A DNA stretch of 53,394 bases, the filler included, from Sluysia triapertura (taxonomy: Eukaryota), in assembly GCA_046118255.1 (NCBI GenBank). It is 2 parts of 2 records of this genome, joined end to end, with 100 filler letters (N's around TTAATTAATTAA, not from the genome) between each part and the next. Parts side by side here need not be neighbours in the genome. Positions count along the whole stretch, not along the records: positions 1 to 29,726 come from JBJNIA010252858.1; positions 29,827 to 53,394 come from JBJNIA010201818.1. The stretch is one strand, 5' to 3'. Numbering within the stretch: position 1 is the stretch's first letter; the number at the start of each line of letters is the position of its first letter. The notes under the pieces were generated by a model that was given only the letters and a program-made list of their open reading frames with translations, was not told the DNA's origin and did not search any database. Shown piece by piece: positions 17,106 through 53,306 of this stretch. Position numbers and translations under genes: made by a program.

Positions 17106-17184
17106 ATTCAAATATATAATAAATTTATTTTACGCATAATTGCTGATAAAGAAAACGGCTATATTGAACAATGTACATTATAAA

Positions 17185-20100: not shown

Positions 20101-21090
20101 GTTGAACATAATGATGCTCCATTGTTCAAATTATCGGTGATGGAAGAAAACAAAATTTACGAATTTCAAGAAATGAATTGTGATACGCTTTGGCGAATAA
20201 TTTTGCATAAAATTGCAAAAATGCGCGAAAATGCAGGTTTGACAAAATTATTTCCTGCATATTTAACTGGTGAACAATTATTCGGTTTGACAGAGCCTCA
20301 TATAATTCGCATAATTGAATCATTGCCAGGAGTTGAAATGATTAAGAATTACGCTTTTAAGTTTGGCAAGATGCAACTAATTACTGAAATGCCATTGGCT
20401 ATTAATCCAACTGGTTCGGCACGTACCGAACCAAAATTACGAACGTATGTACGTCGTACTCAACATTATCATACTGAAACAGTTAATGGGCAGGATAAAA
20501 ACGCTTTATCACAATGTGGAGTTTTGAAAGCAAAATCCAATCAATATGAATTTATTAATTCAATGAAATCATTATTTAACATTAATAGCAGTTCCAGTAT
20601 AACATCAACTCCTAGTTCTAGAATAGTTCAATATAAAAAGATGAAATCTGAGTGGATGAATAATGTGATTTTATCAAGATCTAAAATCCAAGGACTTGGT
20701 TTATTTGCAGCAAGGGATTTAGAGAAATCAACCATTATAATCGAGTATATTGGGGAGTTGATTCGTAATGAAGTAGCCAATCGTCGTGAACGAATGTATG
20801 CTGATCGAAATGATAGTATATATATGTTTCGATTGAATGATGATATAATCATTGATGCTACACGACAGGGTGGTTTAGCACGGTATATCAATCATTCCTG
20901 TAATCCAAATTGTGTAGCTGAATTATTACAATTGGAATGTGGCGATAGAATAGTTATAACAACTAAACAAAAAGTAACTCGTGGCGAAGAATTAACATAT
21001 GATTATAAGTTTGATTTCGAAGAAGATAGTAGCTCTTCACGGATACCATGTCTTTGTGGCTCAGTTAATTGTCGAAAATGGATGAATTAA
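17185..21090 (+). CDS. trr: Histone H3K4 methyltransferase, KMT2C/D (MLL3/4) family, trr type
   Basis: Extended PHD (GRLINLDIDSWIHLNCALWCYEVYE), FYRN, FYRC, WIN motif INPTGSARTE, SET (SKIQGLGLF, ARYINHSCNPNC, EELTYDYKF) and post-SET CLCGSVNCRKWMN; first ATG at 17185. Confidence 0.95.
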   Translation: MNSAGEICKENSKSMCFYANESCKDDDYGMAEFKNDFDAEISIDCCDLSAKASSSSMHESLTNISNSHSTPEDNFSENALMSPIGKSHPKLENDCINMFNDNERNVSNASHSIDDAIESVLNKFRVENDFSHIKSNNSHDSSSVIPSKSMYLSPNGTKANVQVSSSNHKMESAVYTNTNGNTQNYVRAKNYPINYGNGYSSYRNYYSNSNYAPQTLPYSAPYIRNNEQNCYYYYQYPYSNQYRPYYSPPSSYPYSGQYYSPNYQMYRPAIKQSYDPHYQMMDDYSHLNFKIPLSNSNNILPEQSSVKKRRQSDSKQCNTQSKRRKITQTQPLPTTKSPVRNSVSACDEIMYKLKSTNNSLITNPPICSTTTLLPPLGFIENRRHSQKTFKYQKYKSGVYVIKRKNNFDKDCDKYLKKFIEEPVISNNLLSSSHNKDDNENCLEIIPNSPLVELPQECLLKNMSSQDKSVSLNRSESPVLLNALSAKSESSSLLTTISDHNRLPEIHKTANLSQLRQTNFKIPVISCTETETKIIKETPEQSPNYELGFYYIQMNGSFLKRTKINGKTFSNVHIEEAVNLSTISAIKNVLCCCTCNSFLNPIHTIKFKDTELGLESKNDEFSFCTEICLNEFKFKCRNDPNFDRKMVLNPYQLQQSQIILKSSQFLKQPLNKINQKKVCDFEQYVRRRFPSENQNDYSPKVLPSVLSSHSTTPELKFKFSGSKFFNYNSEKLKPIVKTIGKDDKNYLLSRFSCSYRSDGLVDNRRCILCFGVSDADENVAGRLINLDIDSWIHLNCALWCYEVYETVSGCLMEIPQAIQKALKTICSHCNKLGAGIQCYRNKCPSVYHVPCAYQVGCVFYTDRGMYCPSHAVLNHPMLLTSLSAIDRRVVVYRDESALVASTQNPSFVSDDLSKPLFRTGALILNNVGQLLPEQLMSGKFNSSSIIYPVGYHSSRIYWSFNVINKRCRYECQIVEHNDAPLFKLSVMEENKIYEFQEMNCDTLWRIILHKIAKMRENAGLTKLFPAYLTGEQLFGLTEPHIIRIIESLPGVEMIKNYAFKFGKMQLITEMPLAINPTGSARTEPKLRTYVRRTQHYHTETVNGQDKNALSQCGVLKAKSNQYEFINSMKSLFNINSSSSITSTPSSRIVQYKKMKSEWMNNVILSRSKIQGLGLFAARDLEKSTIIIEYIGELIRNEVANRRERMYADRNDSIYMFRLNDDIIIDATRQGGLARYINHSCNPNCVAELLQLECGDRIVITTKQKVTRGEELTYDYKFDFEEDSSSSRIPCLCGSVNCRKWMN

Positions 21091-27487: not shown

Positions 27488-27567
27488 AGGATTGACGGGA
27501 ATCAAATCCAGCAACTCTAGTTTCACAGCTGTGCAGTTCGATGCTCTGACCGCTGAGCTATTAGCAC
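27488..27567 (-). pseudogene. tRNA-Cys(GCA)-like pseudogene or tRNA-derived SINE head
   Basis: atagctcagcggtcagagcatcgaactgca matches the 5' half of tRNA-Cys; degenerate B box ggatttgattcc; T-run follows; acceptor stem does not pair. Confidence 0.65.
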
Positions 27568-28390
27568 CGTCTAATAATTTTATTTTAATATAATCAATTA
27601 TAGTATCATTATTCTATGACACTTTTTGCATGTACACGAACATAATTTTAAATCCAATTTAAAAATGTCTTCAATATCATTTACTACCGAAAACTGAACT
27701 CGATTTTATTTATAAGAAAGAAATTCTATTTTGCAGAAATTCTAATTTAAATTTAATGCTTAAATATATAAATGTAATGCTTTTCATGTAAATAATTAGT
27801 GTAAAATAATTTTTTAATTTTAAATAGTTGTTATTTAATAATAATGTAAGTACAACAACTAATGTAAACACAACAACATTGACAAAAGTATCTATCTATT
27901 TATATATAACTGTTTATATAATTGTGCATTGTTTATAACATTTATTGATTTTGAAACATTTATTATAAAAATTGTGAAACATTTATTATAATTATTGAAT
28001 TTTTATTTGGATTTTTTATTTTTATTTTGACTTTTAAAAAGTAATTTTTGATTTTAAATTTTAAAATTTTTATATAAAATTTGAATATTAATTTAAAATT
28101 TTGAATATTAATTAAAATTGTAACCTGGTTTATAAATTTTTTAAAATCTTCATTTTTGTTTCAATTCGGTCATTGCCGAATTCACACTATTTATACTTGC
28201 AAATTTCATAACTTGAACACACTTTAAAATATAATTTTTAAATACAACTTTTTGAAAAACTCAATTTCGATTTCAATAGATTTTGGCAAATTAAATGCGA
28301 CTTGAAGATTTTTATGCTATTGACAATTATTGTTATAAACCACGTTAGTTTCTTACCAAGTGATAATAAAAGTCCTTAAAAGCAAAAATA

Positions 28391-28610
28391 AATTTAATAT
28401 TTTAAAATAAAATAACGAAGGGAGATTTTCCCTAAATGATACTAAAATACCTTAAAAATAACAACGAATTTAATATTTAAAATAAAATAACGAAGGGAGT
28501 CTTTCCCTAAACGATATTAAAATACCTTAAAAATGCCAATAAACTTAATATTTTAAAATAAAATCACGAAGGGAGTCTTTCCCTAAACAATAACAAAATT
28601 CCTTTAAAAA
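28391..28610 (-). repeat. Three about 75-bp tandem units, each holding an AG|15-nt|GT microexon candidate
   Basis: Exons 28582-28568, 28506-28492 and 28431-28417 (ggaaagactcccttc x2, ggaaaatctcccttc), each after tttag and before gt. Confidence 0.75.
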
Positions 28611-28701
28611 AATTAACAACTTTAATTTTAACAAATTTGATATTTTTAAAACAAAACTATTATTTTAATAATAAATAAATTAATGAAATTAAATACCTTA
28701 C

Positions 28702-28913
28702 CCTAAGCATGGATTTTCGTATCTATCATCATCATCTTCGTTGTCTTGGCTGTTATCTTGTTATTGTGTTGTAAAAATTATGAAATGTTTATTTCATACT
28801 CTTTCATCATCCAATCAATTCCCAGTCTCACAATTAAACACTCTCTCACACAAATCATCCTAACCTCTTTGAGAATCAGACCGACAATAACAACTTTGGT
28901 AACTACATGGTAC
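28702..28913 (-). pseudogene. TIL-like cysteine-rich exon plus ENPC mini-exon, copy A
   Basis: VPCSYQSCYCRSDSQRG*DDLCERVFNC then gtatga; NEDDDDRYENPCL then gtaagg; internal stops. Confidence 0.55.
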
Positions 28914-29140
28914 GAAAATATTACAATTTCTTTTCAATAACAACAACAACCAGGAGTGACGCAACAGACACTAATAATATCAGAAAATTAATTGTAATTA
29001 TGTTATTCAAATATTTTAGGCCAACGTAACAGAAGTGAACACGATTACAATAAAATCGCTTGGTAACAACAACTTCAAAGGAAGACTTAATAGTAAATAC
29101 TAAAGATACAATGTTGGTATTTTGATTAATTAAATTGTGT

Positions 29141-29360
29141 AAGGATTTTCTTCCAAAAGTATCTTTAAAATGTCTAAAAATCAAATATTATCGTTAACAA
29201 AAACTGCGCAGGGATTTTCTTCTAAAAATCTCTTTGAAATATCTAAAAGTCGAATGTTATTTTAGCAAAAATTTAGCAGGGAATTTCTTCTAAAAATTTC
29301 TTTAAAATATCTAAAAATCAAATGTTAATTTTTAAAAAAATTGCTCAAGGATTTTCTATT
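29141..29360. repeat. About 68-bp tandem repeat x4, degenerate microexon-like units
   Basis: a(a/g)ggattttcttc.aaaa.t.tcttt.aaat.tctaaaa units starting near 29141, 29210, 29278 and 29347. Confidence 0.75.
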
Positions 29361-29490
29361 AACTTACCTAAAAAAACAACTTAAAAATTTTACTAAAAAT
29401 GACAAAATATTATTCAAATTACAATAAAATCAATTATATTATTTTAGTAAAATAATAAATAAATAAATAAATAAAACTTAAAAATGTTAC

Positions 29491-29726
29491 CCTGTGCATG
29501 GATCTTCATTTGTTGACATCGTTGCTGCTATATTAACTCACTATAGCGGTGTGATATTACTATTATTGTTGTAAAAATTTTAAAATCTTTATTTTATACT
29601 CTCTCATCATCCAATCAATTCACAATCTCACAACCAAACACTATCTCACACAAATCATTCAAACCTCTTTGAGGATCATACCGACAATAACGACTTTGAC
29701 AACTACATGGTACGGTCTGTCAAACT
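29491..29726 (-). pseudogene. TIL-like cysteine-rich exon plus EDPC mini-exon, copy B (cut by gap)
   Basis: VPCSCQSRYCRYDPQRGLNDLCEIVFGC then gtataa; TNEDPCTG then gtaac; clear nucleotide similarity to copy A. Confidence 0.55.
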
Positions 29727-29826
29727 NNNNNNNNNNNNNNNNNNNNNNNNNNNNNNNNNNNNNNNNNNNNTTAATTAATTAANNNNNNNNNNNNNNNNNN
29801 NNNNNNNNNNNNNNNNNNNNNNNNNN
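29727..29826. other. Artificial contig linker (N44-TTAATTAATTAA-N44)
   Basis: Exactly 100 nt with a six-frame stop linker centred in Ns. Confidence 0.95.
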
Positions 29827-30010
29827 ACTAAGATGATATATTTGTGTGGAGCGATATTGGCGGAATGAAAATAACAAATTATTGTGGTTTATTACATAAT
29901 ATTATGAAAATTAAAAGATTATTATTTGTTTAAGTTATAATATATTAATGTAAAGTGTAATGGATGTTTGTGTTGTATGGGTTAGAGGTTAAGATCGACA
30001 GAACACTACA

Positions 30011-30520
30011 GTTATAAAGAATAATTTGTATTTTGATTGTAATTTTGTGATAATTCAAAGAATATATCGAGATTCTGAATTTGTTTAATCATTGAGTTTT
30101 TAAATGACAATTTGTAAAATAAAAACGAATAAAATACACAACGAACAGTTACATTTTTGCATAGAATCAGACGTAAAAAGCAAGATAAAATTGAATGAAA
30201 CTTTATAGCTGTACGGACACTGCCTTGATTCATCTCTGATTAACGGTGATATCAAGTTTTATTCTTTAGTAATTGATTAAAATAAGTATTTGGAATTAGA
30301 GGATTAAGGGTTAATGAATTATTTTGTATTAATACGGGTGCGAAAATTTAAAGAAGTTGTGTTGCCCGTGGTTGTGATATGTTTTTAAAGAATAATTTGC
30401 GTTGTTATAAAGAATAATTTATATCTTTTAAAAAGTAATTTTGTGATAATTCAAAGAATATATCGAGATTTTTAATTTGTCTAATTATTGAGTTTTAATT
30501 AGTAATTTGTAAAATAGAAA
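30011..30520. repeat. Direct repeat of about 115 bp (starts near 30011 and 30404)
   Basis: gttataaagaataattt...gtaattttgtgataattcaaagaatatatcgagatt shared by both copies. Confidence 0.85.
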
Positions 30521-31119
30521 GTATAAAAGATACAACAATTAACAAGTTTTATAAAAATGTTAACAATGCAATAATTTAATCAATGAACCAAGGGTGACGC
30601 AGCGCCTAAATCAAATTATTATTCCAAATTAAAAACTTCCCAAAGGTAATTTCATAAATACATTATTATTACAAAATTTCAATTATTAAATTAGTCTAAA
30701 ATCTTAATATATTTTTAATATAATTGAAAACCAAAGTAATACAATTTACTAATTAATCTCTTCTAAGTAAACGTTATTAACTACAAATCAATTTTACTCG
30801 TCAATTAATCAGAAACAAAATGTTTAGAATAAATATCAATAATTAAAGAGGAGGTATTCCCAAAAATTAATTTATTTGAATTCAAAATAACAAAACAATA
30901 AAATAATAAAATATTTATTTTAAAATGCTTAGGCTTTATAAAATTTCTAAAAATTTTTCTTTTCAATTTTATCTTAACACTAGGAACAATTAAATCAACA
31001 TAATTAACTAAATTTTTAATTAAAGAAACATTAATGAACTTATAAACAAGTTAAACTTTTTATTATACAATAAAAATACAAAAACAAAAATAACAAATAT
31101 CGCAATGTCTAATTCTCCG

Positions 31120-31318
31120 GAATTTACATCATTCAGTAACAGTTCTATTGATAAATTATAAGGGAGTTGAATAAATTTTAATAGAGCATCATTAATTTCT
31201 TTCAGTTGTAAAATACAAACTGAAAATGTAAATTACTGCTAAAAATGTAGCAAAAGGCTGAGCTAAAAGTAATACCAATAATAACCATATTATAACACTT
31301 ATAATCCGGACAAGCCAT
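31120..31318 (-). pseudogene. Frameshifted small hydrophobic protein gene
   Basis: MACP / ISVIIWLLLVLLLAQPFATFLAVIYIF / CILQLKEINDALLKFIQLPYNL; resembles a recalled uncharacterised about 70-aa invertebrate membrane protein family. Confidence 0.4.
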
Positions 31319-31599
31319 AAATATAATAACTTAATAACTTATAACATAATTTTTGAAAGGTTGATTTTTTTAAATTACTTTATCTTAGATACTAATTAAT
31401 ATTTATTTTTACACATTTCATACATTTTATAATTTCAGATGCTAGTGGGTGGCAGCGTCGACATCAGCAGCAGTAGTAGTATTAGCAGTAATAGTAGCAG
31501 CAGTAGTATTAATTAATAAATTGTAATAATAATAGTAAAATTGTTACATTTTAATAATTAACAGTACATTTTTGCAATAACCGAAAATGAAAAGATCTA

Positions 31600-34500
31600 A
31601 TGCTCCTAGTAGAGTTGGTTGTCTCTAAAGTATTGCGGATTAAGAATGACTCTAATTTTTCGGCTTCAAATTTTTCAACGGACGACAATAAAACAAACGA
31701 TGTTGAATTTTATTCCATAACATATGGAAAGGTATCTAACAAAAAAACATGAGACATGGCAAAGCAATCACCGAAGTTACATAAACCATTTAAGGGACCA
31801 TATGAGATAATGAAAGTCACTTATACTAACTTATTTGTCAAATGTGCTACCAAAATTGGATTCAGAAATATTTTTTGTACACGCCAGTAGATGTAAGATA
31901 ACACCAAATGACGAATATAAATATTGTCAAAAAGTCAATATAAAAAGTTAAACCGAAAATAAAAGATCGAGATAAGCCACCTTCAGTTCAATCACTAGTT
32001 AATAAAAAAGTAATAATGATATTAAATGCCTCAACCGGAATGCGTACACATATTTTCCAAAATGTACGTTTTAATTATAGATGGATTCGATCTGTTATCG
32101 ATACATCCGTTACACATTATAATTTTCTAACTACTTGGAAACTTGTATTAATGGATCCACAACAACAATTTATAGCATAGATCAAATACCAATCAACATG
32201 AACGGCGTGATACATTATATTATATTAATTATATTAGATCAATGGGGAAGACTACTCTTTTGAATTAATAATCGGACTAGATGTTACAGATAAATTGTAT
32301 GATGTAGTAATTCATAGTAAGTTCGGTTTTTTAAAATATCCACAAGGTGCACAAATGATAATACCACCAGTTGTTTTCCCACATATTGGCGATGAGATTA
32401 CTCTGTAAGAAACTCCGATTTAGGCTCCAACAACAAGACCTAATTTCGAATCTGTTGATCCTGTACTACCTTCTTTTCGGTTTTCCGATATGCTTTGGGA
32501 AGAATCATCTATTAACTCATCATTCACATCTGTATGGAGCGAATTTTCGGAATCATCAGGAATTGGCTTTGACGACACAATAAGACAAACAATCATAATA
32601 TTAGAAAATCATTTTGGACACCGTTACTGGTATTAATAGTTATACTCATATCTTTAATTGGTTTTGTGAAGCCGGTAGATCTTGAAGAATGTGAGGAACA
32701 TAGAAATTAATACACTGCCATCAATAACGGAAAAGAACACTAAATATCTATTACGAACATTTATAATGAGTATTGGGAAATAAAGTTTAGTTCAAAGAAA
32801 ATGTTTTACATCATAAACTTGATATTTGTTGTATTTACCTAGAACCATTGCTAATTGGTAAACCGCACCATTTGAATAAAGTCTCAATGTTAAAAGAAAC
32901 CCTCAAAGAGTATAAAACCTTGTGCGAAACATTACAGAGCGTAAATCAACAGAAAATTATTTAAATTGCACCTCTAAATTTAAAGCTAATAATGAAATAT
33001 TGTAATTTTAATTTATAGGCTATTCGCTCTCTCATCCTTAGAGTAGTATATGCAATTTGGATTATATTGCACATAATAAATTACAAGAAACTACGTACGT
33101 TATCAATCAATAACGATAAAGATTACCGAAGTACAATTTAATACACATGGTGCGCAATTCTATAAAACCAAATATCTCGAATTTCGTAATTATGATATAG
33201 AAGTTAGAGTTTAGGTATTGCAATTGACAATCAAGTTAGATTTATGTGCTTCAAACATGCCAGACTTAATTATAGTTATTGGAATGTGCAGCAGTACTAT
33301 ATTAATAATATAGTAAATCCTGTTTCTATATGCTCTGATTTCTTGCCTAACGAAGAACGATATGTTATCTCCCATATATATGTATCACCGCAAAATTAGA
33401 ACAATTGTATTTCTCACTAAAGGGAACAAGGAAATAATCCAGCATTGTTAATTTTAATTTTAACTGCAATATTGTTTATCATCGCTTTGGCGATAGTTAT
33501 ACTTGTAATTATTATACTTGCAATTATACTTGTAATATGTGTAGTTATTCATGTTTAACTCCAAATAACGGCAACAATGATGAATAACTTTGAATCACCA
33601 CCAGGATTTCCATTAGGATTACCTCCTGTTTGCGAATATGCAGCAGGTAATCACTCACAATTAATATACGGTAGTTGGCAAATGACAAGTTTACAATCTG
33701 TTATGTTAGCGTGTTTATGTATGACATTTAATCAATGCATATATAAAATCAGTAATAATATTAAGACCACGGATTACATTAAAAGCACTTCAGCAAAATA
33801 TATATGGAAAAATACAGAGTAACACTGTTAAAATCACTCTATCTCTAAGCGCTATTTGTAATTGGTTCAAGTACGAATCAGACATTGGAAAAAATGTAAA
33901 TCACTGGATTGCGTCATGCGAAGGTCTTGCAGAAAAACAATTATTTAATGTCACCCTAACTTCAGAAATTGAGTACGAATCAAATCAAAATTCGAGAATC
34001 GATACATCATTATAAAATTAGAACAAAGCCTTTTATCTTTGATCAACTTTTAACTGTTAAATTTCTAATGTTATTACATAGGGACAATAACAATTTTGTT
34101 CGTATAACAAATCCTTTAACAGAAAATATTATATTAATTGCCTATGAACTAGATAAAGCAAGTCACTATGCTTTGACACTTCCTAATGCTAGTATCCACA
34201 TACTCTTTATGCCAGATCCCGATCTTACATTTATTGAAGTTTGGATTTTACCTTATAAAGAAATTTATGATACTTTCGGATTTTGGCCATGATATAGAAT
34301 ATTTGACTTACTAGTACCTATTTTTGACAAACATGATGTTATCACTATTTCAATACCAGCTAATAAAACCTTGAGCCTAATAAATACCACATATAAATTA
34401 TCTTATCAAACTAGATAAGAATTTCAGTTTACGATGTAAAAATCACCTACACACAAATCTAACCAACGACTCCATAATAAATCTCTATTACGCTATATCT

Positions 34501-34700
34501 AGTTATTATGTTTCAACTTCCTTTCTTTTCGTCACATCAGTAATACATGTTGTATTTCAAATTCATAAATTTTATATATTCATTAGGCATAGAATCATCT
34601 TTTTATCAAAACAAAATTATAAGTAGTATATTAAAATGAGTAAAGGTATTTCCTGGTTGCTGATGGCTGCCAACTATCCATTTTTGGTAGAAGAAAGGAG
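31600..34700 (+). mobile_element. Decayed 3' half of a gypsy-like LTR retroelement with extra coding remnants
   Basis: Integrase GPY/F motif SPKLHKPFKGPYEI; retropepsin-like VIDTSVTH and ELIIGLD; long hydrophobic helix near 33435-33545; Cys-rich remnants; purine tract agaagaaaggag then TG at 34701. Confidence 0.65.
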
Positions 34701-34898
34701 TGATTAACTCATATTTTATTCTTAATATGTATCATATTTTAACATTAAATTTTGAATTTAACTATCTTACTTTCATTATAAATACATAGTTATCACTTTA
34801 ATTATAATAATGTAGAGTATATTTTAAGTACATCTTTATAAAATTTCAATTTATTTCATGTAATTATCACCTTATTATACTTCTCTTTCCAGTTAATC

Positions 34899-35120
34899 AT
34901 GTCTACTCAACTACGCGTTACAATCTGTGCAATTTGTCAACAACCAATTAGGAAATACTACGTTTCGATTATTCCCTGCAAACATAGATTCCATTTTCGC
35001 TGTCTATTTTTTGTTTGATTTTGCTCCAACTCCTTTTCCTCCTGCTCCATGTATCGCGTCACGATCAAAGAATGCGAAATTTACTATAGAAAACAGTTTA
35101 GGAGATCTTATTCACTGTAA
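34899..35120 (+). pseudogene. RING-H2 finger protein pseudogene
   Basis: CAIC-x13-CKHRFHFRC-LFFV*FCSNSFSS-CSMYR; TGA at the conserved Trp position and the last Cys reads Tyr; ttctctttccag acceptor just before the ATG. Confidence 0.75.
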
Positions 35121-35419
35121 AGTATGCCAGACCTGACTCAACTCCTGTTGTAGCTTATAATGGGCTCCAGGAGGGTCCTAGTGTTAATATTTTCCAACTC
35201 CCTAGTTTTTCGAATGTTCATATTTTGTGTAATGGATTTCAGGTGCCTAAGCCTGATTATCCACCGGATCTGACCAAATCTCAAAATCGAAATTAAAGAA
35301 GACGTCAATTAAAAATTTTTACAAATTACATGCTCATCCACGTAACAATCCTTTCCTAAAAAAGAAATAATCGTTTTTTAAATATTATCATTTATTATAA
35401 ATTTTATGTGAGAACAAAA

Positions 35420-36130
35420 AACAACCTTAAACATTTTCCATTAAAAAATTGAGTGTGAGGAATTGAAAATTAATTAAACTATAAAAACTAAAGTTAAATT
35501 CATCATTTTTAAGTATGTCAATAATAATAATAATTGTTATTTTAATGCAAGAACTGATTCATAAAAAATAGATCGAGTAGAGTAGTAGAAAAAACAAGAA
35601 TTGATTGTTAATCCAACTGTTATGTTTTGCTTGTCGTACCATGTAAATGTCAAAGTCGTTTTAGTCGGTTTAATCTGTAAACGAGGTTTTGATGATTTGT
35701 GTAAGAGTAATTCCTGATTGTGAGTTTGGGAGTGATTGGACAATACAGAGATATAAAAGCGAATAATTAAAAAATTTATAATCCAAGATATGAATGATTA
35801 ATGTAGAAAATAAGAAGGTCAATGTATTGGTAACGTTTATTATTTTTTAATTTTATTTTATTTATTAAAATATAGTTATATATTTTTGGGAGTTTTATAT
35901 TAAGGTTAATTATTTTGGGTCAAATGCATTTTTAGGAATTTCCCTTTTATTTTTATTTGAAAAATTTTACATGTATATTTATGTAATTATTAGAAATCAA
36001 CGTTTATAAGTATATTTTTATGGATTTCCCGATTATTATTTAAGTTTTATTTTTTTGACATTTGTTTAGAAATTCTCCTTTGATTCTTGATTCGTAATGG
36101 TTATCGTTGTGTCGCCTCTGGTTCATTGAT
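35420..36130 (+). pseudogene. TIL-like/mini-exon module, copy C (inverted relative to A, B and D)
   Basis: MSIIIIIVILM start; DC*SNCYVLLVVPCKCQS...RGFDDLC; EGQCI then gtaac; degenerate unit array; terminal motif shared with 28945 and 30578. Confidence 0.55.
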
Positions 36131-36639
36131 TAGTTAAGCGTATTAATATTATTATTTAATTTTTGTGACTCTATTAATTTTAGTTGACTGTAATTGATTT
36201 ATTTATATTATTATTTTTATTGTGCAAGTATAAGTTATTAAATTGTAGTTTGATTTTGTAATTAATAAATTGTTATTAGATTTGTTAATTTAAATTTGAA
36301 GATTTAGGAGAATAATTAATCGATTGATAAATAAAGATTTTAAGATTTAAGGTACTTATATCTAATTTATTTAATTTATTGAAGATATTAAAACTCTGTT
36401 AAGGAATTTGGTTCGATTTTAATTCATTATTGTTAACATTACTAAAGACACAACATTTTAGTTTTTTATTTTATTTATTTAAAGACATAACATTCATTTT
36501 TTTATTTGTTTTTATAATTTTCACGATTTGGCATCTTCACTTAAATAAAATAAAGTATACTCTTAATTATATAAAATTAAAATTAAGTTTAATTGAATTA
36601 AAGTAAGGGATGAGAATTAAAAAAAGATCCTAATCGTGA

Positions 36640-37980
36640 AAAATAAACTCTCTGGCCCATTACTGCAATATTTGGAATTCGATAGCAAACTGCCAACACT
36701 TGAATATTTACTATGTTCAAGCACGTTCAGATTAAGAAGTGATCACTGTTGCACAATTCTGCAATTAAATATCCACAGAAATGACACAGAAATTATTTAT
36801 CCCATTTCAATTTCAATATTAAATATATTCTGGGACAAGAAAACATGGTCACGGGTGGCTCTATCGCGAGCAAGAATCAGCATTATGGATTTTCTACCAA
36901 TGTTTACTGCTCAGAACTTACAATCAATCCACCATCGGTCAAGAGAATTCTAAAGTAGTATAATACCAGTACTCTGTGACCACCAGATATTATAAATCTC
37001 AAGTATAGTACTAAAACTACTTCGTATAAAATCATAATACCCCCCATTCAGAAGCTAAATCCACATACGGCTATTAACACCCAAAGACATCAAACAAAGA
37101 TAAGCGTCATCGGATGTGCGTCTACTATTATGACTTTATTGACATGCGATAGTCACTGCAATTGCGCAAAGTTCCACCTTTCTTGAAGAAATGTGACTCA
37201 TGAAGATGAAGATTAGTGCACATTTGATTTTTTCTATATCAAGGAATTCGGGGCCTACAGGGAACGGAATTTTTATGAAAGTTCCTGTCGTCGGTATCTA
37301 GTTTTAATTTGGTGTAGATCGAATTGGTTATGCAATAAATTCGGAAATACCAGTTCCATGTTTGATAGAATATTTGTTACGTTGACTTGAAGCTGTATCT
37401 TAATATGGGACAATTGCTTGAAGCAAATGCTTAACGTTTTAGTAAGGTAGTTAACTAGAAACTTGTATGGGATAAAAATTCGGCCCCTTTTATAGGTTAA
37501 AAGGAATTTTCATACTTTATTGAATTGGACATTTTTGAACTTTGAATATTTTCTGAATATTGAGATTGGAAGTTCCTAAAAGAATTATCACAGATCATGG
37601 AGCTCAATTAGATTATTAACAACATACCACCCATTGTTATATTGTTATGATTGATATATTTTATTGATGCTCAATAACATCTCATACTTAATCTCAATTC
37701 AACATAATGGGATGGATGCATTATCATTAATTTTATTAGGCTGGCGTAATATAACACATTTCAAACGGATATTCACCAATCCAAATAGTTCCATTCCAAC
37801 AAGCCCAATGAGCTAATTAAAATCCCAGTACACAGAAGTTCTTATATTCGCATACAAAAACATTTCGGATCGGTAGAAATGGAAAATACATCTTCATTAA
37901 AACCAGCATACATTGCACCATACGAAGTTTTTCATATTAATACAGACAACAAAGTAGCTGCTATAAATATATAATAGTTA
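36640..37980 (+). mobile_element. Gypsy pol remnant (RNase H end to integrase)
   Basis: IKYILGQENMV..ALSR, VPKRIITDHGAQL, MDALSLILLGWRN and SLKPAYIAPYEV fragments. Confidence 0.75.
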
Positions 37981-38579
37981 TCTGGTGTAAACTAAAACTA
38001 ATAACAGTTCTAGTAAATCGTCAAAATGAGACACTGAAATGAAGTCTTTCAACAGTACTAAATAAATATGTTTTATTTAAGATCACGATATAAACTAGCA
38101 TTAAATTTCAATAATATTAAATTTATCGTGCTTCTCGCGTCTTCAAAGATGACGAATGCGGTGGCTTTGAACCAAACTTACAATTCTATTACAATTAACA
38201 AAATAAATAAACCATATTGTTTATATTGTCAATAATACTACTTGTTACAATCAATAAAACATCCAAAACCATTTGTCATTCTCTGAATTGTATATAAACC
38301 AAATATAAATTAATAATGTTAGACTGTCATAATAACTTAAAAGGTTTTAATTTTAAAACATTGCCTCTTATTTTATGCTTTGCTCATATTTTCATTTTAT
38401 CATATTTTAGTGAAGCGTTATTTTAATTATAGCATTATCAAAAGGAATAACAATTACATTTTAATTCTAAATTTAACGAATCTAAAAACACTTTAATTTG
38501 CTTTAAAATTGAAAATAATTTAAACACTAATATATTAACCAAAAACAAAGAATATGTTGGGACTTATACTAAAATGTCA

Positions 38580-39480
38580 AAAATATTCTTAATAATAATA
38601 ATAGAAATTCCCAAAAATATTTATTACAATAATAAGTCTTTTTTAATATTATGGATCAATGATAAAATCGAAAATAACAATTTAATATATTTTAAGCAAT
38701 CTACAAAATAATGCTTATATGAAAAATGAAATTATTAACAATTATCAAAAACAAATTTATATCTATAAGGACCATTAATATCAATTTGTGTATTTAATCC
38801 TAATCTAGTCATAACACAGGAATAAAATCTCTAAAAATGTCAATCTAAAATGATACATATTTACCTCAAAATTGGGTATCTCTTATGTAAATTAAATTAA
38901 TTCCCTAAAATAACAAATTTGGTTACAAAATTGGCTACAAATATACTTAACTTTTTTAAATTAAATATAGAATAAACTATAAAATGTTATGACAAAATAT
39001 ATAATATTAAAATTAATACTTATTTAAAATAAAAGTTTATTTTAAGTGGGTCAATAAAATATTCTTGATTAAAATTAATATTAACAAAAAAATTTAAAAA
39101 ACGTTACTTAAAACATGGATCTTCTTTTTATAATCACCTGTGAATGTTTTATTTTTTCTAAGAGTGTGTAATTTATACTTTTATTTTATTCAATCAAGAA
39201 TTACTCTTACACAAATCATCACAACATCTTTTAAAGATTAAACCGACTAAAACGAATTGACACATGGTAAAACTTGTCAAGCAAAGCATAACAATTCGAT
39301 TAACAATCAACTCTCATTTTTTCTTCTATTGTACTCGATCTACTTTTTCATGAATCACTTCTTACATTAAAATAACTATTATTATTATTGTCATACTTAA
39401 TAATAATTAATTTAACTTTAGTTTTTACAATTAAATTAAATTTCAATTCATCACACTAAATTTTTAATGGAAAATGTTCT
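38580..39480 (-). pseudogene. TIL-like/mini-exon module, copy D
   Basis: 39170-39480 is a close inverted copy of 35420-35720; MTIIIIVILM*...DC*SNCY; 30-nt exon 39137-39108 ending EDPCF then gtaac. Confidence 0.55.
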
Positions 39481-39774
39481 CATTCCCAACAAACAATTTC
39501 ACAAACATATCAAAATCATTTTAGGATTCTTCTATTTCATAGCAATCACTCAATACCCAACTCGTCATCTTTTCATCATTGTAAATATGAAAATTTAAGC
39601 ATTTTTTAAATTAAAATTTAATTAAAATTCGACTTTATTCAATATAGATGCTTTCCTCACATGAATTCAGTCAAACTTTATCTCCATCGAAAGGTCTCTT
39701 TAAAATACATATGCACAATTACACTTTTAACTCATTTAAAAGTTATTCATACAAACGTAATTTTCCTTAATTAA

Positions 39775-40611
39775 CTCTATCGCAGCCATTGAGGTCGAAA
39801 ACGACTGCATTCAGAAAATCAATGATTTCTGTACTTTGTAAGCGTTCTACTGCTGAATCAACAAATAAACCTAAACTAATAGCTGACTGTAACGTAAATA
39901 TGAGTGGAGTCTATCTTTGCGATCAATTGCTAATTTATTATGCCGTGAACCGAAAAACCACGAAATGGTGGAAGCGAGTGTTTTTTCGTTTAATGGATTT
40001 AGCACTTATAAATTATGTGGTCTTGATGACAAGTGTCATTCCAGAGAAGGATGAGGAAAGACAGTTTCATAAGAAATTTAGAATGGAATTGGCCCACCAG
40101 CTGGTACAGCCGTTGTTAGACGTTTACTCGCATTCTGAAGTTCGACGTTCCGATTCAAGATGGCAAGGGAAAACACTTTGCAGTTAGTCAAACTCTATGC
40201 CGTAGTTGTGTTGTGAGTACATATGATAAAACGCCTGCTTGAAAGTATAGAAAAACAAAAACCACAAACTATTGTACAAAGTGTTGTAGATACATTTGCC
40301 GATACGCTCAGATATCAAGTGAATAATGTGTATATAGCAGTTAAATTTTTGTGGCTGTATGTTTGTCTCTAATTTGTATGTTTTTGCAGGTTTTTTGACT
40401 ATGTAAAATGTTGGAAAATAATTTTATGTTTTTGTATTATTTTTAACTTTTGTGACTGAATTGTGTCTTTTGAACGACTTTATGCATATTCTGCTCAAAG
40501 AGATGAACAAATTGGTGTATCACTTGCCATGTGCTTCTTAATATGTTAGTCATTAGTAATCTATAAATTGGTTCACCCGAATTTAGCAAAAACAATCTGG
40601 CTGCCGTAGAG
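39775..40611 (+). mobile_element. Internally deleted piggyBac transposon
   Basis: TTAA on both sides; TIRs ctctatcgcagcca and tggctgccgtagag (12/14 match); transposase C-terminal part KPKLIADCNVNMSGVYLCDQ...KWWKRVFF plus Cys-rich tail remnant. Confidence 0.9.
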
Positions 40612-41859
40612 TTAAGTTAATTAAGATTTTAATTAATTAATTATTTTAACTTATTTTATTCTAAGTTTAAAGATTTTTATTATGAGTAAAAAGTTGTTAA
40701 ATACTTTGTAAGGTACTCAGGAGGCTCCAGGTATTTTCATCTTCACATGCTGATTCATTTTTCTACTTTTTTATTTCAATTAAAGCATTAAATTTATCTT
40801 TGTTATTATGAACCATGATTTTAATTCTTGAACATTTCAAAGGTTCCAAAAATTTTACAAGGTTAGTCGAATGTCTTAAAAGTTTAATAAGGCCTTAAAT
40901 GTCTTCAAAGATTCCGAAAGATCAACAAGGTCTCAAATGATCCCAAGGTTCAGAAGGTATCTTTACACTTCAAGACATCTTTTCAAACCTTACTTAAGTC
41001 TTCAATACCCTACAAGGGTATTTGGAACTCCAAGGTGTTCTTCAGTTTCAAAATGATTATAAACATTTTACTGTTCATTATTCTTGCTCTAGGAATATAT
41101 AATTATATTTATATTATCATATTTCAGATATTTTATATCTCTTTTCTTTACATTCATTTTAAATCTTTTGCCTTTTTATCTACTTTCTTACACTAAATGC
41201 ACAATATCAACAAATAAATATTTTTAAGAACTAGAATCAAAAATATACATAATAACGTACTCGAGTAAGTGGATGTTATATTTGACAAATAGTAGTTGAA
41301 TTCGTGCAGCGTTTTAATATAATCAAATCTTGGTGGTAGCAAGTCAGATTCAAAATTTCTAGTTATTGTTTAGTTAATTTCAGATCTAGTACGCATACTT
41401 TACCATAAATGATTATTAATGGATCAGATCTAAATTCATTACATTTTGACGGTGTTGGTTTAGGAGTTTCAGTTAAATTATGTAAAAATAATTTCATAAC
41501 AATGTTAGATGATGACGAAACATTAGAACACCCAATATCATTTACTAAAAATGATTCTGCTCCTTTCAATAAATGAAATAAAATTATAATTTTCATAATT
41601 CTCAAACATTTTAACTATCAGCATCATTTTTAGGATTTTGTATTTTTTAAAAATTTTTATGTATTTTATATTTCAGATACGTATCAAGAACATACTTGAT
41701 ATTTGAGAATAATTGAAACCAGTTAAATCCACTTCTTAATATTGTTAACGTCAAAAATATTTTTATCAATCACATTATTTTCACTAGCTAATGACGTTAA
41801 AGCCATTTTTATACTTCCAATGAAAGGTTATTACTGAATTTCAAAATAATTGCATATGT

Positions 41860-42745
41860 TATTAAATAATCACCAGATCCTGTAGTGTTCATAATTTGAT
41901 TGTTCTAAATAAAATTTTCCATCTTTTTGGGACAACAAAACAATACCCTTCGGGCCTAATTTAATGATCCATATTGAAATTTGTTTTAACAAATCAGAAT
42001 TTCTAAAGATTGTTTTGCCACAATATTAAATTTTATAGTGCAACATTTGAATTACTTTTCAAAATGCTCGAGATTATATCAATTATTTTTGATTATTTAC
42101 TTTTATTTTCTTCACATAATTTCTGTAATTTATTTATCACTAATATATCAGTTGGTTCATAGAGTTTATTACAATAATCAATTAATATTGCTAATATTTA
42201 ACGTTGACAGATTTTTATTTAAGTAATCAAAATCGATATATTTATGAATGTTCATCTCACTGATTTGTAGTAAATATATTGGTAAATATATTTATTTGGT
42301 AAATATATTGCGATAATTTCAAAGTTATCAATAATATTAACATATGACCAATTAATGTGAGAATTTTTATTTTTAATAAAATAATTTTTTAGATCTGCAC
42401 CTAATGAAATTAACAATGAACATTGGCATCTAAGTTTTATAATTACATCAGCTATATTTCTAGCAACACCGCCACAAATCTGTTTCATACTACAACTATA
42501 AGTACCTTCTACTTTGAGATTATTCAAATTAACTTCAGAATTTATTCAACAATCTATGTCAACTACAGTTCCACCAATTGCAATGTATTTATCTTGATTT
42601 GAAAAAGATTTTTTCCGCATTTTTCATATTAACGATTTAAAACGGAAAATTAACTTTATAATTTTGTACTTTATGCTTCACGGATATCATTTGTTCATTC
42701 TAATGTGGTAGTAATATTTGTATAAATTAAATGGTGTTTCATGTT
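41860..42745 (-). pseudogene. PfkB-family kinase pseudogene, pseudouridine kinase-like
   Basis: IAIGGTVVDID, CGGVARNIAD, ISLGAD, IIKLGPKGIVL and MNTTGSGD motifs broken by stops and frameshifts; upstream ETPFNL may be a glycosidase tail. Confidence 0.75.
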
Positions 42746-43753: not shown

Positions 43754-43907
43754 NNNNNNNNNNNNNNNNNNNNNNNNNNNNNNNNNNNNNNNNNNNNNNN
43801 NNNNNNNNNNNNNNNNNNNNNNNNNNNNNNNNNNNNNNNNNNNNNNNNNNNNNNNNNNNNNNNNNNNNNNNNNNNNNNNNNNNNNNNNNNNNNNNNNNNN
43901 NNNNNNN
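43754..43907. other. Assembly gap
   Basis: Run of N. Confidence 1.
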
Positions 43908-44133: not shown

Positions 44134-44410
44134 CAACAACCAACTGAGGTAAAATTTGTAATACGTAGATTAACAAATCTGTTTTTAATATTATATTATA
44201 TTTCTTTTTAGCAACAATTTAGTGAAGTAAAATTTATAATACTTATATTAAGAAATTCATAATTAATGCATTTTTCGTCTAAAGATAAGATATTATATAA
44301 AATTTCTTTTTTTAGCAACAATTTAGTGAGGTAAAGTTGATAATACTTACATTAAAAATATTGCAATTATTGTATAATATAATATTTATTTTCAGAAACA
44401 TTCCAGTGAG
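44134..44410 (+). CDS. Four 15-nt microexon candidates (44134-48, 44212-26, 44316-30, 44396-410)
   Basis: Each has a pyrimidine tract, AG, 15 nt and GTAAA; phase 0 gives QQPTE, QQFSE, QQFSE, KHSSE; introns 63, 89 and 65 nt. Confidence 0.7.
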
Positions 44411-45249
44411 GTAAAGTTGATAATATTCATATTATATTAACAATGATACTATCATTATCGAATTCTGATTATTATTATTATTAATTATTGGTATCTAATT
44501 TTTTCAAAAATTATAGCTTTATCTTTGTTATAATTTAAAAAATAATATTTGTTTTACTGCTTCAAATAATAAAAAATGGTTGACATAAAATTAATTACAA
44601 AATAGTGCAACGAAATATAAGGTTATATTTTAACAGCAATCATAACATCAATGAAATGGATAAAGCAGGTTTTAAAGTGAAGAAGAACACTAAATCAAGT
44701 CATCCATATGGAATGATACATATCAGATATATAATCATATTGTAAATGTTAGTTAAAGCACAGTTTTAAAATGTCGCATATGAATAATTTTAAATATTAC
44801 AAACTTTAGGTCCTTAAATTAGAAACGAATTATTATGATTTGGGGAATGAATAGTACAGAATTGTTGTTTTATTATAAAACAACAAAATAGAGTATTGAG
44901 GGTGTTTAGAAGATTCCACTAGATAATGCTTGTTGCAGTTTCTATAAAAGTCTATTGATAAATTTAAATTTCTTATCAGAACATTATCAAACAGTTTAAA
45001 ATAGTACTAAAAAGGTCAGCAGTGATTTTGAAATAAATGTTATTGACATTATTATTGCATTGAAATATGTACTTAGGCTAAAGCGAATGACTTAAGATCA
45101 GTAGGGATTTTAGTCAAGGATTTATTTATTTTCTTTACATCTATGCTTAATGTATAAGATGCATTGGCTTTTTTTGTAAAATTGTTTCTTTTTTATTTAG
45201 ATAAGACGCATTTCAATAAAAAATTTTATTTTACCATTTGTTTTAATAA

Positions 45250-45650
45250 TAATGACTGAAGAAACTCATATGCAGCCAAGAAAGAATTGGAAATAATAGA
45301 ATAAGCAGAGCTCAATGGAAATAGAGAAGAAGGTAGACATTAAGAGATAAATGAAGCTAATGCGAGGAGATGGAGGGCAAATAAATCGGTTTTGAGTGTT
45401 TATGATACAACAAAAAGAGCCAAGAAGAAAGAAAAATTCATATTTGCCCGAACTTGAGATTGAATTCAAAAATTGGGTTTTAAATCAACGGAAGGAAAAT
45501 ATAAAAGTTTCTGTTTTATCTACTAAATTTGAAGCCAAAAAAAATTTCTTATTTTTCAACTACTCGAGTATACGCCGTATCATAATTGTCTTTGATTTTT
45601 CCATTTTTTTATTTGTACAAGACGTGGCTTTTGTACAAGATTTTATGGTA
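45250..45650 (+). mobile_element. pogo/Tigger-like transposase remnant (CENP-B-type HTH)
   Basis: INEANARRWRANK and LPELEIEFKNWVLNQRKENIKVS; possible right end gattttatggta. Confidence 0.7.
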
Positions 45651-47226
45651 CCTGTATAAAGCTTATTTTCATTGATTTGATTCTTTATTGGAAAATGCAA
45701 TTAAGCTTATTGGAATGAAAAATACGTAAAATAATGTTTATAATGATATTAAAAGAGAGATGTCATTAGGAAATGAAGCTGAGTTAGGGTCTGTGTTTTT
45801 CTTTTTTCAAGTCACTTTACATATTTTTCATACTAATTATTGACCATCGGTATACTTGTACAATTTCACAATCTCATAAACGAATATGAAACTTATTTGA
45901 ATTTAAATACTCAAAATAAGCAATAAAAGAATAATCATCTATTAGTAATAAAAGCAAAGAATAAGAAAATCCAAAAGTAATGGTAGCAGATAGTGTTAAG
46001 AGTTTGTATTTATAATAAATTTAATCCCTAACTAAGCATTTACTATTTATTAAACAACTTACAATTTTAAAATGTTCTTTGCCAGTTACGAGTTTGTGTT
46101 TCTATTAAATGGTTCAGAATATATTAATGGCTTCGTATTTTAACCTCTTGACGGTTTTATCCGAACTGCACTCGGATGTGACATTTTTTCGTACACTGAC
46201 GATTGCGATGTATTTCAAAATATGTTACACTAAAACTACTTATTGATTAAATTTATGGTAATTAATAAATGTAGTCAAATAAAAATATAAAAAGTGACAA
46301 TTTTTTACGCCTTTTCTCAAAAAATCCAAATGTTATGTGGTTAAGACCTAAGAATAAAAATGGATTTTTTTGACACTTCGAAACGAAAATAAGTTCCAGA
46401 GGCAATTACTCGATCTTAAATTTGAAGACTACTACACACATTAGCTGCGTGTAAAAATCTTTTTTGAATATTTTCCATAAATGCTTTTCTTGTTGACAGT
46501 ATTTTGTTAATTATATTTGTAAATTAAGATATTGTTTTCATAATAAAGTTTTAAAATTCTCGCATTTCGCCATTTTCTGGAATCAGCCAATTTATTTTTG
46601 CAAAAATGAATATAAATAAGTGTAATTTGGGTTAAAAATACTTTTTTAAATTATAATGTATTATTTATTTTTATAAATAAATAATAGAAACCGCCACCTT
46701 TTTTCATAGTCCCGTTTTTGGCGGATGAGAGAGTAGTTACTATGTATTGTTTTAAATTAATTTTTGAATCTCTCAAATAGTTTCCACTTTACATTCATTT
46801 TAAATTCTTGCTTTTCATTTTAAAAATAAAATATCTAGCAAGATAAATGCTAGGTAATGCAGAAATTCTAGTATGATATTAATACATTAATGTAAGGTTG
46901 TATTATTGTCGCTATACCGCCGGACATGAATTTTGCACTTCGTAACATGCAAGTTTTATTGTACAATAATGTAAAAAAAAGTTTACATTATTTAAAATTC
47001 GTAAAATATTACCAGATGTATAAATAAATGTGCGAACATTTAAGTGTTAAAAAAGCAACAATTCGTGTTTTAATTTCTGATTTTCAACGTACAATCAAAA
47101 GGAAAGTCAGTTGTAACTTTGTTAGATGATATGTGTATGACTTTAAGTTTACTTTTAACATTCAATAATCAGTAGTGATGATGAATTATTATAGTGGAGA
47201 AAAAATTAATTGTATTCAATTGGTAG

Positions 47227-47733
47227 ATTTTCCCAACCCAAAGCAGTCATACTCCCAGTAAAACTTATCATTCAACAGCAGAAGGTGGTGGTTTTGAAAC
47301 TTCTGGAGATTTGAATGGAGAATCAACAGTATCACAAGGATATGGTACTTCAACTTATAGCCCATCAGCAGTGGGAATATCAACTACAGGACCGTCAACG
47401 AGAGAAACATCAAAGAATATTAAACCAAAAATAGGACCATCAAAAATGGGTATATCATCTATAGGAGCAACAATAACGAGTCAGTCAGATGTAATGATGA
47501 CAAAAGGAACACCATCAACGGTCATGTCAACAACAGAACCAACAACTGCAACTAAGTATACATCTGGCAGAGATACAACCACTGCATATACAACAGATAA
47601 ATCTGGAGCGTCTAGTACAGAATCATCAGATGATGATGAATATGGTAATGATGATGGTAATGATGATGATGATGAAGATGATGAAGAGTATGAGGATGAA
47701 AAGGATGATAGCCACAGTTCAAATGAAAGCCAG
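47227..47733 (+). CDS. Mucin-like Ser/Thr-rich exon with acidic tract, phase 0-0
   Basis: tag acceptor at 47224-26; 169 open codons IFPTQSS...DDDEDDEEYEDEKDD...ESQ; gttata donor. Confidence 0.75.
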
Positions 47734-48631
47734 GTTATATTTTAAAATCTAACGGAATACTTGTGGTTTTTCTTATTTTAAATTTTACGATAAGTGGTAG
47801 GCATACCTGTAACAACTTAACTTTAACAACTTTAACGTATAATTTACTATGTAGATTATATTAATTTATAATTTACTTTATATTACTTAGAGGATCTTAT
47901 TTCTTATGCACTAAGAATTCCTCAAATTACGTTTATTGAATTTATTCTGACAATCTTAGTATTTCTGTCCAAATTTATTAAATTTTTCACTTAAATTTTC
48001 TTTAATCAACAAAACAATTAAAAACTAACATTTAATAAAATCATAATAATCAAAGGTGCTAGACAAACATAAGAAATAAATATAAAATAAACAAACAATA
48101 GTATCTTACGATCAAAAATATTTAAAGTATTTAATCGAACTAAATTCAGATTTTATGAGGATTTTCAACCACTAATAAAAAATATTAATTACTTACTTTT
48201 ACTAGTAAGTAATTTAAATTTAAAATTTTAAAACTTCTTTTTTAAAATAATGTATTAAAATAAATTTATTTATTATCTATTCATATATTTGACAGTTTAT
48301 GCTGATTTGTATCAGTTTGTGTTCATATTCATTATTTAATTTCTATTTTATTAAAAGCATGTTTATTTCGTTATTATCGTTATTATCGTCCTACTTGCCA
48401 ATTAAATTTAATGAGTCTCTTTCTATGGTTTTGAATTTTCTTTGTTTTTAAAATGTTTCCTTAAAACTATTATGATATTCTTACAATTACTAAGGTATAT
48501 TAGATTTGTTTAATTTATATAATAATTAAAATAATTCATATTAATAATATAATAATAATAAAATAAAAATAATAATAGTAATTATTACTTTATCAAAATA
48601 TTTTATTTGAATTTATTATATTTCAATTTAG

Positions 48632-48734
48632 AGTGTTTTTAGTGAGGTAATTTTACTACTTTTATTTTATAATTTAATTTTGTTAATAATTTTCAGTTTT
48701 CATTTTATTTTTATTTTAGCCCGGTTTTGGAGAG
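48632..48734 (+). CDS. Two 15-nt microexon candidates (48632-46, 48720-34)
   Basis: tttag|agtgtttttagtgag|gtaatt (SVFSE) and ttttag|cccggttttggagag|gtacat (PGFGE); 73-nt intron. Confidence 0.65.
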
Positions 48735-52585: not shown

Positions 52586-53306
52586 GTAGGTGAAATATAT
52601 TTAATTTTCGACATTGTTTATATTGACAGAAAGATTTATTGTTTAATATTTGAATAATTTCACACTTTGTTTATATTTTCATAATTATAATATATTATTC
52701 GAGTTCTGATAATCCGCGTCGTAACTGATAACACAATAAATGTCTTAAGCTAAAATCAATACACGTGATAAAATGCAGACAGCAAACCAGGAAATTCTCT
52801 AGCAATTATTTTTGAAATCTAGTTCTTTGTACATGGCTCTAAAGCAAAATAAAGAAAATACAATAGGTGTATCTGTAACTATAACTAGTAACTTCCTAAT
52901 CTATCTTTCGACGAAAATAAATATAAATATAAAATCAAAAATTATTCATAGTTGCTATGAAAGAATAACAATTAAAAATGGAATTCTTACAAATAACTAC
53001 AACAAATACAACAAAAATGATGAAAATTTCAGATACATGAAAAGTTTAATTTAAACTTTTTAAATTAATTTAATAAACAATGACAGCTGAATGGTTATCA
53101 AATCAATTTGAGTTATGATTTAACGGTTACTGTATTGTGAAAAATGTACTGATTATTTGCCAATGAGATTCATTAACATAAAAATAAAATTTTTAATATT
53201 TGTGTTAATAATTGTCATGAATAAATAATACTATAAAATTTAAAATTAAAAGCAAAAACATACATGAACAAGTAATTTATCATTTTTATTAATAGTTAAA
53301 ATTTAT

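Follow-up and report, generated by a model that had tools for sequence, protein, structure and literature searches.

A local cluster of putatively decayed cysteine-rich gene copies in the genome of Sluysia triapertura

A 53,394-nucleotide stretch of DNA from Sluysia triapertura (assembly GCA_046118255.1), here called the window, was analysed for a module that occurs in four copies, A to D. On balance, the four copies are probably decayed paralogs, clustered locally, of an unclassified, lineage-specific flatworm gene for a cysteine-rich protein that was probably secreted. The copies are homologous, lie as a tandem pair (B to A) and an inverted pair (C and D), are mostly broken, and have diverged in a neutral-looking way. 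The evidence moderately supports a locally expanded, mostly dead family, which a preliminary description of this DNA had proposed as a birth-and-death family. The GC content is 25% across the window, which contains three N runs. Its genes include an innexin and a KMT2C-like SET protein. Because the best named relatives of the innexin are flatworm proteins (about 44% identity, with no near-identical protein among those listed), the host is a flatworm or close to one.

Homology and layout of the copies

The preliminary description had placed the copies at 28391–28913 (A, −), 28945–29726 (B, −), 35420–36130 (C, +) and 38580–39480 (D, −). Pairwise identities and shuffle z scores bore out these places and strands. 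A and B showed 89% identity over 148 nt and form a tandem pair with an 800-bp period. C and D showed 85% identity over 297 nt, and the pairs across the two groups reached 61–68% over 169–201 aligned nt. The cores scored z = 8.5–32 against local shuffles. All copies lie within a single 11-kb cluster, and the rest of the 53-kb window yielded no other core copy. The span of the cluster includes the gap at 29727–29826 (44 N, a 12-nt linker and 44 N), which interrupts copy B. C and D also have a homologous upstream flank (C 35430–35514, +; D 39395–39478, inverted), and the upstream extension of A's homology into C/D was not above background.

A partial copy had also been described near 30578–30960. 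Its end stood: at 29.6 bits, the 30-nt piece at 30577–30606 is a homolog of the C end (the next best of 106,550 positions scored 13.8). The remainder did not, as 30610–31100 matches no part of the module. This piece, E, therefore is a terminal piece only (30560–30606, −), after a TTAG acceptor. A 135-nt direct duplication (84%; 30011–30142 and 30404–30536, +) lies between the gap and E and is unrelated to the module.

Terminal inverted or direct repeats were found in none of the eight spans tested, and the true copy ends are uncertain. No target-site duplication was found; the flanks gave just two A-rich matches of 4 nt, both beyond the homologous arms. The preliminary description had named terminal inverted or long terminal repeats with target-site duplications as the mark of an ordinary transposon, and no such ends appeared in any of the 8 spans. 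The idea that C and D are the two arms of one transposon was rejected for want of a target-site duplication at the arm ends.

Exon model, coding signal and state of the copies

The exon model was built from splice-site motifs, phases and composition. The modelled layout is an ATG-hydrophobic exon, a 31/32-nt intron, a cysteine-rich (Cys) exon, an intron, an exon ending in E[ND]PC, and a tail; the intron phases chain 2-2, 1-1 and 2-2 across the copies. The evidence for this layout, with its hydrophobic start and E[ND]PC exon, is moderate. The hydrophobic start noted earlier is present in C and D alone, and it shares the reading frame of the Cys part only once a short intron is removed. Candidate exon 1 of C (35515–35546, +) has an ATG and nine mostly hydrophobic codons from an ATA run, ends in phase 2 and has the donor GCAAGA; that of D (39366–39394, −) has an ATG and eight such codons, phase 2 and the donor GTAAGA. 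Hydrophobic ATGs number 31 among the 1,888 ATGs, and a G[TC]AAG donor then follows in C and D only. A common acceptor gives candidate first introns of 31 nt in C (35547–35577, +; other frame-restoring acceptors give 25, 34 and 52 nt) and 32 nt in D (39334–39365, −; with a 1-nt indel relative to C). The candidate intron pairs that restore the frame (4/14 in C, 4/22 in D) all use the same homologous donor.

The Cys exon of A is a remnant (28832–28931, −) that has lost its 5′ part and contains one in-frame TAG; a phase-1 GTGAG donor lies at 28831. The Cys exon of B (29632–29726, −) is cut on its 5′ side by the gap, has 29 visible stop-free codons and has GTGAG at 29631. C (35578–35719, +) has one TAA in common with D and 1-nt insertions relative to A/B, which break the frame, and GTGAGT follows at 35720. 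D (39195–39333, −) has the same TAA and is also frameshifted; a 19-nt deletion has taken away its donor. The donor described after the Cys part thus holds as phase-1 GTGAG in A, B and C but is lost in D. The segment from this donor to the ENPC exon has no coding-like composition and carries stops common to the copies, and so appears to behave as an intron would. In A it is a candidate 75-nt intron (28757–28831, −) with the shared stops and a GC content of 0.29.

In A and B, phase-1 acceptors open a short exon that ends in E[ND]PC at a phase-2 GTAA. The candidate exon of A ends in ENPC (28702–28756, −; strong donor GTAAGG at 28701) and that of B, 37 nt long, in EDPC (29491–29527, −; donor GTAACA at 29490); both run from phase 1 to 2. 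D has an EDPC end (39103–39125, −) with a GTAAC donor at 39107, and C has a degenerate equivalent (35808–35833, +) with GTAAC at 35830. GTAA after E[ND]PC-like codons was therefore confirmed in 4/4 copies. Past the GTAA, the composition shifts sharply in all four, from GC 0.25–0.35 to GC 0.09–0.15 with T 0.52–0.60, which is intron-like. The end pieces of B and E each follow a phase-2 acceptor. The candidate terminal piece of B (28934–28970, −; after a TTAG acceptor) weakly matches the ends of E and C, and its match to E is marginal (15.3 bits, best of 106,598 positions). The terminal piece of C homologous to E lies at 36104–36133 (+).

Coding composition was scored with a codon model trained on host genes, and each frame was ranked among six. 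As a control, the true frame came first in 23/26 held-out KMT2C windows and in 2/3 broken-gene controls. The frame proposed earlier ranked 1/6 in seven of eight overlapping module segments. The Cys exons of A and B both ranked first of six (P(max of 6) = 0.028 and 0.087, respectively). In every one of 400 shuffles, even the highest-scoring of the six frames fell below the whole 70-codon frame of A (P(max of 6) < 1/400), and this signal weakens to P = 0.035 without its GAT run. Pooled GC at third codon positions was lower than at the first and second (p = 0.017), and the fixed-frame pooled P was 0.004. No coding-like composition was found in the reverse-strand open reading frames (ORFs) or in the 88-aa hydrophobic end ORF of B. 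Codon composition thus moderately favours the originally proposed strand and frame as the best ancestral frame. A reverse frame with pN/pS 0.26 was rejected (P = 0.15 after six frames).

The description of all copies as broken applies to A, C and D. The visible modelled exons of B are stop-free, and the gap truncates it at 29727. C and D share the TAA and the insertions, and therefore their ancestor was already dead.

Several results weigh against a coding ancestry or the exon model. No purifying selection was seen in the Cys frame (pN/pS 0.91, 0.72 and 1.29): its divergence fits a neutral simulation (P = 0.59), differences per codon position are 6/12/4, and 24/34 gaps break the frame over six pairwise views, which are not independent. 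With free choice of frame per segment the pooled codon signal drops to P = 0.10, and B's codon score is equalled by 12% of 257 GC-matched background windows. Among dinucleotide shuffles, 5% for A and 32% for B contain at least five cysteines in some frame. The ATG-donor pair of C and D counts as a single independent event, for which we estimate about 0.3 chance occurrences, and a common ATA microsatellite makes up its hydrophobic run. The model had a choice of several acceptors; the two 5′ candidate introns are richer in GC than host introns (0.13–0.16), and the A intron stands at 0.29. The tandem units of B lack a donor, and no protein homolog was found in the searched databases.

A different explanation is clearly the less probable. 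The module would be a non-coding repeat, either a non-autonomous transposon relic or an old segmental duplicate with minisatellites, and its Cys codons and splice motifs would be chance on a G+T-rich strand. Neutral divergence and frame-breaking indels agree with it, as do the two orientations, the differing truncations, the missing protein homolog, and the neighbouring piggyBac-like remnant and broken RING. TATA-like and reverse CCAAT-like motifs also align in the core. A promoter with a three-codon first exon (TATA-like motif, ATG six bases before GTAA) was rejected as part of the gene model and kept under the non-coding explanation alone, since this reading provides no signal peptide and runs into a stop immediately in D. 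The absence of terminal repeats in 8/8 spans, the confinement of the copies to 11 kb with none elsewhere in the 53 kb, and the codon periodicity with a phase-consistent splice model argue against a non-coding repeat.

It is unlikely that the family is alive at this locus, with B intact and the stops elsewhere caused by assembly errors or by fast, positively selected evolution. B has no stops in its visible modelled exons, other genes of the window, such as the PfkB gene, look broken too, and a pN/pS near 1 is no proof of death, since mature regions of micro-exon genes (MEGs) show dN/dS >1 in the data cited from PMC4350168. However, the stop and insertions shared by C and D would not be expected from random errors, the tandem units of B lack donors, and the 5′ end of B lies outside the visible sequence.

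Under the favoured reading of decayed paralogs, the ancestral product would be a small disulfide-bonded protein that was probably secreted and belongs to no known family. Its gene would have begun with a short exon of ATG and hydrophobic codons. A 31/32-nt intron, a Cys-rich exon and another intron would have come next, then the E[ND]PC exon and, last, a short exon contributing one further cysteine. Between the last two exons, units of an intron plus 15 nt may have been duplicated in tandem (A, B). In A, the 15-nt units could be skipped without frameshift, which would give a variable spacer between two cysteines, as in micro-exon genes. Unequal crossing-over and local inversions within transposon-rich DNA presumably gave rise to the copies, which then died. 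B or copies elsewhere may be intact, and the contig break within B hints at additional copies. An intact product would most likely be an extracellular binding or structural protein of the body surface or secretions; protease inhibition is not indicated.

The Cys pattern and readings outside the favoured one

The preliminary description had read the Cys exon as a trypsin inhibitor-like (TIL) domain, which would make the family secreted protease inhibitors. We consider this very improbable. Its pattern DC.SNCY...VPC.CQSCYCR...QRG.DDLCERV..C is a composite assembled from different copies and frames: DC*SNCY occurs in C and D only, where DDLC falls in another frame, and the last codon of V..C is a T plus the GT of the proposed donor. 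The Cys exon pieces contain 5 (A), 4 (B), 4 (C) and 2 (D) cysteines, those of C and D counted as far as the frameshift. The spacing of cysteines in TIL differs from that in the copies. The TIL domain is described in the cited part of PMC9149172 as having ten cysteines and five disulfides, with eight cysteines in some variants. The composite exon holds at most six, and a single copy at most five of the ten. CxC followed by aromatic-x-R and a later cysteine does resemble the C-terminal half of TIL, and the hydrophobic start is plausible; TIL proteins without two of the cysteines exist, in the same passages of PMC9149172.

The searches did not support the TIL domain: Pfam, PDB, the atlas and a profile search of 1.84 billion proteins all gave no TIL match. 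The Pfam TIL model, PF01826, had no match in 26 translated segments (six frames of four cores) at E ≤ 10. The same scan returned nothing but weak hydrophobic or chance matches, HMMER filters discarding most matches above E 0.1. As a positive control, a broken 27-residue half-RING nearby was detected at E = 2e-5 by the same X read-through. The PDB search with B's Cys stretch and a four-piece profile gave no match. A 38-position profile searched against 1.84 billion protein representatives gave a single match, to an unnamed four-fold repeated protein without TIL, and it was rejected. Neither B's Cys stretch nor its 88-aa end ORF had a usable match in the atlas, and a word-index search with A's read-through frame, which covered proteins of 47–151 aa only, gave none. 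Structure models of the fragments were of low confidence (pLDDT 49.9 and 58.5).

Two readings of the opposite strand were also considered, and both are very improbable. Decayed spliced-leader (SL) RNA genes are suggested by an ATG followed by GT in 4/4 copies, on the opposite strand, and CATGGTA occurs just 6 times in the window. AUG-GU is given as a conserved flatworm SL motif in the cited section of PMC12582326, from which the Sm-like site and stable-hairpin criteria also come; further sources in part for this reading and its tests are PMC8629364, PMC7346339 and PMC2770079. The four downstream stretches (that of B only 18 nt) contained no UVUUUGG or RAU4-7GR at one mismatch or fewer, and two-mismatch sites occur in 1020/1056 background windows. 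Folding was no better than in shuffles in 4/4 copies, and Rfam gave no match at E ≤ 1 on 27500–41000. The SL RNA idea was rejected on the failed Sm-site and folding tests and the lack of an Rfam match.

The other opposite-strand reading, a membrane protein, is as improbable as the first in our judgement. It starts from a 77-aa ORF with a hydrophobic stretch in A and an 86-aa ORF in C, with stop-free frames in A, B and C. Such frames occur in 4–27% of shuffles, however, the codon scores place them fifth and second among six (P(max) ≥ 0.97), and no homolog was found among 230 candidates in a word-index search with the reverse-strand alignment as query, limited to 31–151 aa.

Tandem tails, neighbouring genes and known systems

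Tandem units led by tttag had been described behind the E[ND]PC exon. TRF found arrays in A and B but none in C and D. The array of A (28362–28610, −; 76 bp × 3.3) contains three 15-nt AG...GT units (28568–28582, 28492–28506 and 28417–28431, −), which are 60–61 nt apart, in phase 2-2, and have the weak donors gtgatt, gttatt and gttatt. The array of B (29143–29357, −; 69 bp × 3.1) has acceptor-like unit ends and no GT at +15, so that AG...GT ends at 15 nt occur in 3/3 units of A and 0/3 of B. Tail-to-tail scores were equalled or exceeded by 6–87 of 696 unrelated windows. A micro-exon tail, as proposed earlier, is plausible for A alone.

A cleaner array of the host lies outside the module, at 44134–44410 and 48632–48734 (+), and contains six 15-nt phase-0 units. 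It has TTTAG/TTCAG acceptors, GTAAA-type donors and introns of 63–89 nt, and the splice sites are better kept than the introns. Four of its units are consecutive, the run length used to define micro-exon genes, and an assembly gap (43754–43907) lies just upstream. That the host has such an array counts in favour of the decayed-paralog reading. Large Ser/Thr-rich mucin-like exons with internal repeats of 30–174 bp occur at 47227–47733 and 50843–52600 (+), on the same strand as the 44134–48734 micro-exon array, and possibly belong to one gene with it.

Copies A–D sit in gene-poor, transposon-rich DNA. A piggyBac-like transposase remnant (39771–40184, +; DDE_Tnp_1_7, E = 8e-9) directly adjoins copy D, and a broken RING lies near 34930. 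The regions 31570–35010 and 36620–37950 (+) are strongly decayed coding-like DNA with a long hydrophobic stretch near 33440–33560. Gypsy-like integrase motifs were noticed by eye near 31780 and at 37570–37950 and were unconfirmed by Pfam or PDB. Elsewhere in the window, 17140–21090 (+) is a single ORF of 1316 codons, apparently intronless, with PHD, FYRN, FYRC and SET domains (KMT2C/D-like). The innexin gene (6875–8400, −) has a 45-nt intron, and its upstream splice junction appears one base off by eye. A PfkB-family kinase gene (41300–42620, −) has an in-frame stop and apparent frameshifts and is either a pseudogene or affected by assembly errors. A protein-kinase C-terminal fragment (2714–2989, +) and a broken multi-exon Cys/His-rich gene of no assigned family (1300–2560, −) were also seen.

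As found, the module is an ordinary cluster of pseudogene-like copies from a family without classification. It is of use to annotators, since repeat masking would otherwise hide it among unknown repeats. Should intact members exist, copy A would offer a concrete route for the birth of symmetric micro-exon arrays, and this flatworm family would become a candidate for a variable protein that is secreted or sits at the surface. A broader claim, which we hold as tentative and rather doubtful, is a living, undescribed flatworm family that combines a new secreted Cys-rich domain with a tail in which the distance between two cysteines is set by skipping tandem-born 15-nt micro-exons. If true, this would extend MEG-like diversification beyond flukes and tapeworms, with B or unseen copies intact and with micro-exons still forming by intron-plus-exon tandem duplication. 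Among the open-access papers listed for micro-exons in Monogenea, no title deals with such genes.

The copies can be compared with known systems. TIL domain proteins (PF01826) are likewise small, Cys-rich and probably secreted and have a CxC motif; they have ten cysteines, against fewer here, and the copies gave no HMM or PDB match. In Gyrodactylus salaris, introns have modes of about 32 and 58 bp, the short mode at first introns, according to the portion of PMC4040987 cited; the lengths here (31–32 and 60–61 nt) fit both modes, which is a comparison and not an identification of the host.

The MEGs of Schistosoma, Echinococcus and Hymenolepis resemble the module, in the cited parts of PMC4350168 and PMC7653826, in their flatworm hosts, in local tandem expansion near transposon relics, in a probable signal peptide and in symmetric skippable 15-nt units (copy A). 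Membership as a micro-exon gene is tied to four consecutive micro-exons in the cited text of PMC7653826; the module has three units in A, 0/3 with donors in B and no array in C or D. A candidate for the signal-peptide trait, an ATG-hydrophobic run with a donor, was seen in C and D only. Unlike in MEGs, no more than three consecutive units occur, and in one copy only, an ordinary Cys-rich exon carries most of the coding length, three of the four copies are broken, and a sequence link to a MEG family is not shown. Birth-and-death clusters of lineage-specific secreted Cys-rich genes are a known kind of system. They differ from the module, in which no intact member was seen and for which the databases searched gave no relative, and they are alike in their tandem and inverted local copies, two divergence depths, predominance of pseudogenes and repeat-rich DNA.

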